From the IMG/VR virus record IMGVR_UViG_2896595138_000011, positions 1-14,542 of that record: a DNA stretch of 14,542 nucleotides; one strand, given 5' to 3'. The position numbers were made by a program, and so were the translations under genes. Source of the stretch: a virus. Its lineage: Duplodnaviria > Heunggongvirae > Uroviricota > Caudoviricetes. Position 1 is the stretch's first letter. Each line of letters opens with the position of its first letter. The notes under the pieces are model-generated. The model had not been told where the DNA came from and made no database searches. It saw nothing but the letters and a program-made list of their open reading frames with translations. Positions 1,174 through 1,871 of the stretch are shown here, piece after piece.

Positions 1174-1202
1174 TTGATTTAATTCACAAATAAAACTATA
1201 AT
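1174..1202 (+). promoter_or_regulatory. sigma70-like promoter abutting the methyltransferase-like ORF
   Basis: -35 TTGATT 1174-1179, 17-bp spacer, perfect -10 TATAAT 1197-1202; ATG at 1203 and a second ATG at 1215, with no clear Shine-Dalgarno. Confidence 0.35.
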
Positions 1203-1871
1203 ATGGTGAAATTAATGAAAAAAAACACAGATGATGGGGCTAAAATTTACACACCACTTACCCTAAAGCTTTATGACTGGTGGGTTTTGGGAGTATCAAA
1301 TCGGCTTGCATGGGGATGTCCTACAAAGGAACACCTTCTTCCACACTTTCTGGAACATTTAGGTAACAACCATCTGGATATTGGTGTTGGAACTGGGTTT
1401 TACCTTACTCACGTACCTGAGAGTAGTCTGATATCTTTAATGGATTTGAACGAAGCTAGCCTGAACGCGGCATCTACAAGGGCTGGGGAATCAAAAATTA
1501 AACATAAAATTAGCCATGATGTTTTTGAACCTTATCCTGCGGCGTTACATGGTCAATTTGATTCCATTTCCATGTTTTACCTTCTTCACTGCCTGCCTGG
1601 AAATATATCTACAAAAAGCTGTGTAATACGCAATGCGGCGCAGGCCTTAACTGATGATGGAACTCTATACGGAGCCACAATTCTTGGCGATGGAGTTGTG
1701 CACAATAGCTTCGGTCAAAAACTGATGCGCATTTACAATCAGAAAGGCATCTTTTCAAACACAAAAGATTCCGAAGAAGGCTTAACACATATACTCTCAG
1801 AGCATTTCGAGAATGTTAAAACCAAGGTTCAAGGTACTGTAGTAATGTTTTCCGCTTCAGGGAAAAAATAG
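1203..1871 (+). CDS. Putative class I SAM-dependent methyltransferase-like protein (222 aa), function unknown
   Basis: Intact AT-rich ORF with a Rossmann-type motif I LDIGVGTGFYL, acidic post-I residue (MDLN), and motif II-like FDSISMFYLLHCL. True start may be the second Met (MKKNTDD, 1215). Confidence 0.6.
   Translation: MVKLMKKNTDDGAKIYTPLTLKLYDWWVLGVSNRLAWGCPTKEHLLPHFLEHLGNNHLDIGVGTGFYLTHVPESSLISLMDLNEASLNAASTRAGESKIKHKISHDVFEPYPAALHGQFDSISMFYLLHCLPGNISTKSCVIRNAAQALTDDGTLYGATILGDGVVHNSFGQKLMRIYNQKGIFSNTKDSEEGLTHILSEHFENVKTKVQGTVVMFSASGKK

Follow-up and report, generated by a model that had tools for sequence, protein, structure and literature searches.

The stretch of viral DNA analyzed here, referred to as the window, comprises the 14,542 nucleotides of the Caudoviricetes record IMGVR_UViG_2896595138_000011 of IMG/VR and contains, upstream from an ipaH gene, an open reading frame (ORF) for a putative S-adenosylmethionine (SAM)-dependent methyltransferase. 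A preliminary description of this locus had reported an intact, AT-rich ORF of 222 residues that was located between a remnant of a tail-fibre-assembly (tfa) gene and the effector gene and was devoid of an MxiE box. All of these features were recovered. The ORF extends from position 1203 to position 1871 on the plus strand of the window. Its GC content is 40.5% (34.7% at third codon positions), versus 52.3% for the whole window. The tfa remnant lies on its left in a divergent orientation, ipaH lies on its right, and the only MxiE box of the window is located before ipaH, no second box being found in the window within 3 mismatches. Coordinates are collected in Table 1.

Sequence comparisons identified the ORF as an intact allele of ybcY, an already annotated gene of lambdoid prophages. 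The NCBI entry for the identical protein is WP_000239881.1, designated 'class I SAM-dependent methyltransferase'. The exact 222-residue and 218-residue sequences were each found on at least 1000 contigs, and the 90%-identity cluster holds 6589 member sequences. Residues 5 to 222 aligned with PHROG 2132, a family of 'unknown function' (E = 8e-157). In E. coli K-12 MG1655, the orthologue is the pseudogene ybcY (b0562), flanked by tfaD and tfaX within the DLP12 cryptic prophage. K-12 ybcY and its flanks displayed about 98% column identity with positions 1100–1911 of the window in a pairwise alignment, and 96.9% identity across positions 901–1911 by blastn. The copy present in strain CFT073 is named c0651 ('ybcY precursor') and that of Shigella flexneri 301 is SF2021, located upstream from the ipaH gene SF2022. 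No functional study of ybcY, WP_000239881, or SF2021/SF2201 was found in the literature. A 'putative SAM-dependent methyltransferase' reported to be induced by anaerobiosis in S. flexneri, SF5M90T_1184, could not be linked to ybcY and was not used.

Table 1. Positions of ybcY, its sequence motifs, and the adjacent features in the window.
Feature	Positions	Strand	Remarks
15-bp direct repeat CCAACCGCAGCACGT, left copy	827..841	+	Forms the 5' arm of the terminator hairpin of dinI; bounds the tfa'-methyltransferase unit on the left
tfa remnant, equivalent of K-12 tfaX	900..1146 (ORF 940-1146, 68 aa)	-	Caudo_TAP 30.7 bits; matches to K-12 tfaX and tfaD
Candidate promoter TTGTAA-17-TTTAAT	1155..1183	+	TTGT(A/C)A and TTTAAT conserved in E. 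coli, Salmonella, Enterobacter, and Citrobacter braakii
Promoter of the preliminary description, TTGATT-17-TATAAT	1174..1202	+	10/12 consensus matches; -10 hexamer ends at 1202, directly before ATG 1203
Shine-Dalgarno-like GGTGA	1205..1209	+	5 nt before ATG 1215; AAGGTGA in Salmonella, Enterobacter, and C. braakii
YbcY-family methyltransferase coding sequence	1215..1871	+	Most likely coding sequence, 218 aa; annotated 222-aa form from 1203
A8 tract, codons 2-4 of the 218-aa form	1218..1225	+	Two independent inactivating lesions in or at its edge
Motif I of the SAM-binding site, D59-I-G-V-G-T-G65	1377..1397	+	Codons read from the sequence
Hairpin 6 nt past the methyltransferase stop codon	1877..1913		-18.4 kcal/mol, z -4.1; 5' arm = right repeat copy (1875-1889)
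CssrB, chromosome-encoded Shigella small RNA	1880..2059	-	Full-length match (1-180) to RF02799, 228.5 bits versus a gathering threshold of 76
MxiE box of ipaH, GTATCGTTTTTTTACAG	2052..2068	+	0 mismatches
ipaH (547 aa), separate module starting at about 1912	2154..3797	+	NEL 258 bits; NCBIfam IpaH_Shig 565 bits

The class I methyltransferase motifs noticed in the preliminary description were substantiated by profile searches and structure prediction. The protein scored above the cutoffs of four Pfam models, Methyltransf_12 (37.6 versus 30), Methyltransf_23 (28.8 versus 27), Methyltransf_25 (27.7 versus 27), and Methyltransf_11 (24.6 versus 21.2). In addition to motif I, the predicted SAM-binding site comprises D81 (encoded at 1443–1445), the ribose-binding acidic residue ending strand 2, and D106, the adenine-contacting residue after strand 3. 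In an alignment of 36 homologues displaying 56 to 99% identity, residues D59, G61, G63, T64, G65, D81, H105, S121, S123, H129, and C130 were invariant and D106 was conserved in at least 90% of the sequences. The mean column identity was 65% in the cross-genus alignment of homologues. The family is further characterized by an N-terminal motif of its own, Y24-D-W-W-V-L...N33...W37.C39 (YDWWVL..SN..AW.C). The AlphaFold model (predicted local distance difference test score, pLDDT, 90.2; predicted template modelling score, pTM, 0.86) displayed the seven β-strands of class I methyltransferases, residues 1–14 alone being disordered. The assignment of YbcY to the class I SAM-dependent methyltransferases is thus well supported by the predicted fold and by the residues of the SAM site. 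Since the sequence contains no N-terminal hydrophobic stretch, the enzyme is probably cytoplasmic.

Our best guess for the substrate of YbcY, drawn solely from the make-up of its fold neighbours and from its single-domain architecture, is a small molecule or a lipid. The top Foldseek match was 8ys9, a phosphatidylethanolamine N-methyltransferase (E = 5.8e-12, template modelling (TM) score of 0.61–0.65), followed by phosphoethanolamine methyltransferases, and nearly all of the best fold matches were enzymes acting on small molecules. A profile search of the PDB returned JHAMT and UbiG only, both as weak matches, and a search of NCBIfam with the methyltransferase returned nothing near the cutoffs. 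The longer homologues contained no informative fused domain. The head of the Foldseek list, together with the comparable size of the proteins (about 210 residues), raises the possibility that YbcY is a membrane-lipid methyltransferase, such as a PmtA-like phospholipid N-methyltransferase, altering the envelope of the lysogen. However, PmtA was not found by sequence or profile searches of the PDB, and phosphatidylcholine is not a known product of E. coli. We regard this specific function as improbable.

Methylation of a nucleic acid was also considered. A phage-borne gene in a cargo hot spot could encode a counter-defence enzyme or a DNA, tRNA, or rRNA methyltransferase protecting the phage or reprogramming the host, and the search of PADLOC returned mad2 only, as a very weak match (E = 0.0033), with no real match to a defence system. 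However, YbcY contains neither a (D/N/S)PP(Y/F/W) nor a PC catalytic motif, matches no DNA-methylase family of Pfam, and lacks an RNA-binding extension. Its homologues are encoded by stand-alone chromosomal genes in many genera, and its fold matches are, almost without exception, small-molecule enzymes. We attach a small probability to this type of function. Its DNA methyltransferase variant was rejected, based on the lack of both the catalytic motif and a match to a DNA-methylase profile.

The distribution of ybcY was compared with that of ipaH. When 5426 complete E. coli genomes were compared with positions 1100–2160 of the window, 3839 of them matched, the homology running on into ipaH in only 9 of these. 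Among the matches listed without this continuation, the alignment ended at query positions 812–815, corresponding to positions 1911–1914 of the window. The ORF alone was recovered, with 80% or more of its length, from 3799 of the 5426 genomes (about 70%), including O157:H7, O145, S88, ATCC 25922, K-12, and commensal strains. A 100% identical protein is encoded by free lambdoid phages (ev243, 2G7b, PhiR29, and others). In ev243 and in the DLP12-type remnants by ompT, the gene is flanked by two tfa fragments and located on the strand opposite to that of the tail genes. The distribution of the gene is therefore not confined to bacteria with the type III secretion system, since it includes K-12, free phages, Klebsiella plasmids, and Pseudomonas chromosomes. 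To our knowledge, most of the E. coli strains carrying ybcY lack a Shigella-type secretion system. No Shigella plasmid was present among the organisms listed for 761 plasmid records carrying a homologue.

In Shigella, an identical 547-residue IpaH is encoded at two prophage sites, btsS and zinT, and the methyltransferase gene precedes ipaH at both. Positions 771–4452 of the window are 99.3 to 99.7% identical to the zinT copy. The linkage between the methyltransferase gene and ipaH therefore reflects the copying of one ancestral block rather than a repeated association. Constant co-occurrence with ipaH, a question raised by the preliminary description, was not observed: the gene is present at the btsS and zinT loci but is missing from one Shigella ipaH locus (L013) and from the ipaHd locus of enteroinvasive E. 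coli (EIEC), which passes from dinI to ipaH without a methyltransferase gene.

These observations bear on the proposal that the ORF might encode an unrecognised type III effector, or else a protein acting in partnership with IpaH by modifying either IpaH or a target in the host. Such a role would be consistent with the immediate vicinity of the gene to ipaH, observed at two prophage sites of Shigella and in nine EIEC-like genomes, with an AT-richness shared with effector genes, with the predicted disorder of the first 14 residues, and with a change towards consensus of the –10 hexamer in the ipaH-linked copies. It is contradicted by the absence of an MxiE box, by the presence of the gene in about 70% of E. 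coli genomes, for the most part with no ipaH nearby, and by the production of the same protein by free phages. The existence of ipaH loci devoid of the gene, the lack of Shigella plasmids among the records mentioned above, and the stand-alone chromosomal relatives found in Enterobacter, Salmonella, Yersinia, Proteus, and Pseudomonas also argue against it. We consider this role highly improbable, and the distribution of the gene argues for a protein that is neither a type III effector nor functionally connected with IpaH.

The independence of the two genes was also apparent from the boundaries of the modules. The 15-bp sequence CCAACCGCAGCACGT is present in two exact copies, at positions 827–841 and 1875–1889, separated by 1048 bp (0.03 expected by chance). 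The left copy belongs to the terminator hairpin of dinI (829–865; –19.0 kcal/mol, z –4.2) and the right copy to the hairpin located downstream from the methyltransferase gene. Locus L013 of Shigella (3600–4020) lacks exactly the unit located between the repeats, the dinI hairpin running directly into the upstream region of ipaH. The tfa'-methyltransferase module shared with other prophages was delineated by local BLAST to positions 923–1911 of the window, and homology with phage ev243, AR_0013, and K-12 stops at position 1911, inside the 3' arm of the post-stop hairpin. In the window, the ipaH module occupies the place of the right-hand tfa fragment. The preliminary description had placed the ORF in the same cargo block as ipaH; this assignment does not hold, since the prophage homology stops at about position 1911 and the methyltransferase and ipaH units occur independently.

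The small RNA CssrB is encoded by the junction itself. A Northern blot band of about 180 nt corresponding to CssrB has been reported between SF2021 and SF2022 (Peng et al., 2011). In the window, CssrB is antisense in the spacer separating the methyltransferase gene from ipaH, its 5' end overlaps the MxiE box, and its 3' hairpin is the post-stop hairpin (1877–1913). Because the prophage homology ends in this hairpin, the body of CssrB is part of the ipaH module, and the hairpin terminating the RNA is part of the methyltransferase module. Hairpins of this kind, in which one arm is provided by the repeat, appear to serve as junctions between the modules of these prophages. Further downstream, at about position 2120, the window lacks 33 bp upstream of ipaH that are present in all nine other loci compared (EIEC locus L001 and Shigella loci L012 to L019). 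The missing segment is bounded by 9-bp repeats, ACATTTTAT, and the distance between the MxiE box and the start of ipaH is consequently shorter in the window.

Homologues were used to locate the translation start. The methionine encoded by ATG 1215 (M5 of the 222-residue form) is invariant and most members of the family comprise 218 residues. At the position of ATG 1203, the triplet is AAG in the other genera and ACG in E. coli MN06021, in which the gene is annotated from M5. For these reasons, and since the PHROG 2132 alignment begins at residue 5, ATG 1203 is probably not the start codon, and translation probably begins at ATG 1215.

This assignment modifies the view of the promoter. The preliminary description had proposed a near-consensus promoter ending on the start codon and, as a consequence, a transcript with no leader or a very short one. 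The promoter-like sequence does exist at positions 1174–1202 and abuts ATG 1203, but the latter codon is probably not used. The DNA upstream from the gene is conserved across four genera, and two promoter candidates overlap there. The number of promoter-like matches in the region was not above chance (2 found versus 3.4 expected from shuffled sequence). Transcription from the upstream candidate (1155–1183) is predicted to start at about position 1190, generating a leader of about 25 nt that would include the Shine-Dalgarno sequence. The start expected from the TATAAT hexamer ending at 1202 is at about 1208–1211, which matches neither ATG 1203 nor ATG 1215 and is located within the conserved Shine-Dalgarno sequence, making a leaderless transcript unlikely. 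The location of ATG 1215, 12 nt past the –10 hexamer, the conservation of the Shine-Dalgarno sequence, and the second conserved promoter candidate upstream all argue against the leaderless proposal.

The –10 hexamer reads TATAAT in all the ipaH-linked copies compared, i.e. the window, one EIEC copy, and three Shigella copies. It reads TATAAC in all ten other E. coli and phage copies sampled, as well as in Salmonella and C. braakii, and TGTTAC in Enterobacter. At positions 1197–1202 of the window, one C-to-T change makes the consensus –10 of the ipaH-linked copies. The near-consensus promoter is thus the product of a single lineage-specific substitution. A peak of RNA polymerase holoenzyme binding detected by systematic evolution of ligands by exponential enrichment (SELEX) and an H-NS site have been reported in the ybcY/tfaX spacer of K-12, in which TTGATT-17-TATAAC was predicted as the promoter (Shimada, 2014). 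The SELEX peak reflects in vitro binding of the polymerase to the region and is not evidence for which hexamers are used.

To evaluate the maintenance of the gene, copies were examined for lesions. Six of the seven Shigella copies examined were intact and identical. Match lengths in an evenly spaced sample of the E. coli matches revealed no net insertion or deletion in 35 of 39 full-length copies. The four remaining copies (MG1655, BW25113, ET12567, and the pig isolate T142A) had a common allele shorter by 2 bp. The K-12 lesion is a 2-bp deletion at the start or edge of the A8 tract that removes ATG 1215, whereas the lesion present in Shigella locus L015 is a –1 frameshift within the same tract (A7). 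The A8 tract may therefore be a hot spot for slippage. These results indicate that the gene is dispensable yet not generally decaying.

The question arises whether ybcY is a functionless hitchhiker, i.e. a decaying remnant kept in Shigella by its linkage to a selected ipaH gene. The K-12 pseudogene, the A-tract frameshift of one Shigella copy, the clean deletion of the unit at one ipaH locus, and the disruption of nearby tail genes by insertion sequences would all be expected on this basis. The hitchhiker proposal does not account for the 3799 genomes of E. coli, among the 5426 compared, that retain 80% or more of the ORF, in most cases free of insertions and deletions, nor for the conservation of the family across genera with invariant catalytic motifs, nor for that of the regulatory region and Shine-Dalgarno sequence. 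We consider that ybcY is unlikely to be functionless.

Relatives of ybcY outside E. coli and Shigella were searched for additional functional clues. The family comprises about 1740 clusters at 50% identity, and a genome scan confirmed relatives at 513 sites. These were found in Enterobacter, Salmonella, Citrobacter, Yersinia (including Y. pestis), Proteus, Erwinia, and Pantoea, and also in Pasteurellaceae, Pseudomonas, and Xanthomonas. ORFs were called in 80 loci from many genera and the neighbours were clustered. No neighbour recurred beyond one genus in these 80 loci, the largest clusters (13 loci each) reflecting synteny within Pseudomonas only, so that no functional partner emerged from the genomic context. 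In individual loci of Salmonella, Enterobacter, C. braakii, Escherichia albertii, and the Klebsiella IncF plasmids, the gene stands alone. Distant members are encoded by plasmid pEA29 of Erwinia amylovora (L022, 53% identity) and by the Klebsiella IncF plasmids (65 to 67%). A more distant one (32% identity, E = 3e-24) is located in the vap pathogenicity island of the Prescottella equi plasmid pVAPA (L021, pVAPA1643), beside vapH and the gene of a LysR-family regulator. Copies 99 to 100% identical, including loci L038 and L047, were also present in assemblies labelled 'Bacillus sp.', in a metagenome-assembled genome of Planococcaceae, and in the Bacillus thuringiensis plasmid record HM037272.1. 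The copies labelled Bacillus or Planococcaceae most likely result from contamination or misassembly.

Taken together, the data make it likely that ybcY is a lambdoid-prophage moron encoding a class I methyltransferase, brought beside ipaH by modular recombination and devoid of a role in IpaH function. The preliminary description had listed a phage moron among its options, and this option fits the presence of the same protein in free lambdoid phages and in DLP12-type remnants, the opposite orientation relative to the tail genes, the promoter region, and the downstream hairpin. According to this proposal, intact ybcY would encode a cytoplasmic enzyme of 218 residues, most likely translated from ATG 1215, that most likely passes the methyl group of SAM to a small molecule or a lipid. 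With its own AT-rich promoter region and its downstream hairpin, the gene would form a self-contained unit read against the tail genes. Because of this organization, transcription independent from the late tail operon is probable, and expression from a resident prophage is possible. The proximity of ybcY to ipaH would stem from recombination between modules at the tail-fibre end of a lambdoid prophage, in which the ipaH module and the body of CssrB became attached to the terminal hairpin of the methyltransferase module. The tfa'-methyltransferase-ipaH block thus formed would then have spread to at least two Shigella prophage sites.

Some observations weigh against the moron proposal. A start from the consensus TATAAT would fall inside the conserved Shine-Dalgarno sequence. 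No mapped transcription start for ybcY, b0562, or tfaX was found in the supplements of ROSE and Adams (2021), which report K-12 transcriptomes. Finally, the gene is dispensable, as indicated by the K-12 pseudogene, the frameshift in Shigella L015, and the deletion of the unit in L013.

A different interpretation can be built from the mobility of the family. YbcY-type enzymes occur on prophages, Klebsiella IncF plasmids, pEA29, and the P. equi vap island, and might be mobile host-adaptation enzymes acting on small molecules derived from the host or the microbiota. The copy joined to ipaH in the Shigella/EIEC lineage would have been upregulated by the C-to-T substitution and co-opted into a virulence locus, with convergent transcription possibly affecting CssrB or ipaH as well. 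We give this scenario only a slim chance of being correct.

If ybcY is a prophage moron, its adjacency to ipaH would be an accident of modular phage recombination and the gene would not be worth pursuing as a candidate effector. YbcY is among the most widespread E. coli prophage genes lacking an assigned substrate, so that assigning its biochemical function would improve the annotation of thousands of genomes. The 15-bp repeat and the shared hairpin boundaries offer a view of the assembly and loss of ipaH cassettes and of CssrB in Shigella prophages, and the lineage-specific change from TATAAC to TATAAT provides a simple comparison of promoters that can be tested.

The window corresponds to a wrecked prophage in which the genes left intact are ybcY and ipaH. 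The remaining tail region (3976–14542) is degraded, with short DUF4376, tail-fibre, and Lom ORFs and a fragmented gpJ. A DDE transposase ORF is located at positions 7113–8012, and an insertion-sequence transposase ORF containing an HTH_Tnp_1 domain begins at position 13524. On the left side of ybcY, positions 921–1123 of the tfa remnant (minus strand) barely exceed the gathering score of the Rfam model IS009 (125.6 versus 117 bits).

YbcY can be compared with several known systems. NleE and OspZ, produced by enteropathogenic E. coli and Shigella, respectively, are type III substrates that methylate a cysteine of a host protein and do not adopt a class I fold. YbcY resembles them in being a SAM-dependent methyltransferase of similar size found in pathogenic E. 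coli and Shigella, but differs from them by its canonical class I fold and its occurrence mostly in genomes with no ipaH nearby. No similarity to NleE or OspZ was seen in any of the searches. The solved small-molecule and lipid methyltransferases PmtA (8ys9), JHAMT (7ec0), UbiG (4kdr), DhpI (3ou2), Coq5 (4obw), and BelI (9fce) share with YbcY the seven-stranded Rossmann-like fold, a GxGxG motif I, the acidic residue ending strand 2, and a single domain of about 200–270 residues. However, they are only 12 to 21% identical to YbcY with TM scores of about 0.6, from which no shared substrate can be inferred, and there is no known counterpart of the N-terminal motif of YbcY or of its invariant residues C39 and C130. 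The members encoded by pEA29, pVAPA, and the Klebsiella IncF plasmids belong to the same family and also stand alone on mobile elements, but their hosts and neighbours are different, and these members offer no function for transfer to YbcY.

Another parallel is provided by the morons that lambdoid phages carry at their tail-fibre end (lom, bor, and the exchangeable effector loci), which are likewise autonomous units of atypical GC content located beside the tail genes and read against them. YbcY differs from these in being a predicted cytoplasmic enzyme rather than an outer-membrane protein or a secreted effector. K-12 ybcY is similar to the window copy in its DNA (about 98%), in its tfa-flanked position at the tail end of a lambdoid prophage, in its upstream region, and in its downstream hairpin. 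It differs by the 2-bp deletion that destroys the start region of the K-12 gene, a pseudogene, whereas the window copy is intact, by a –10 hexamer reading TATAAC in K-12 and TATAAT in the window, and by the sequence located downstream, which is a second tfa fragment in K-12 and the CssrB/ipaH module in the window.

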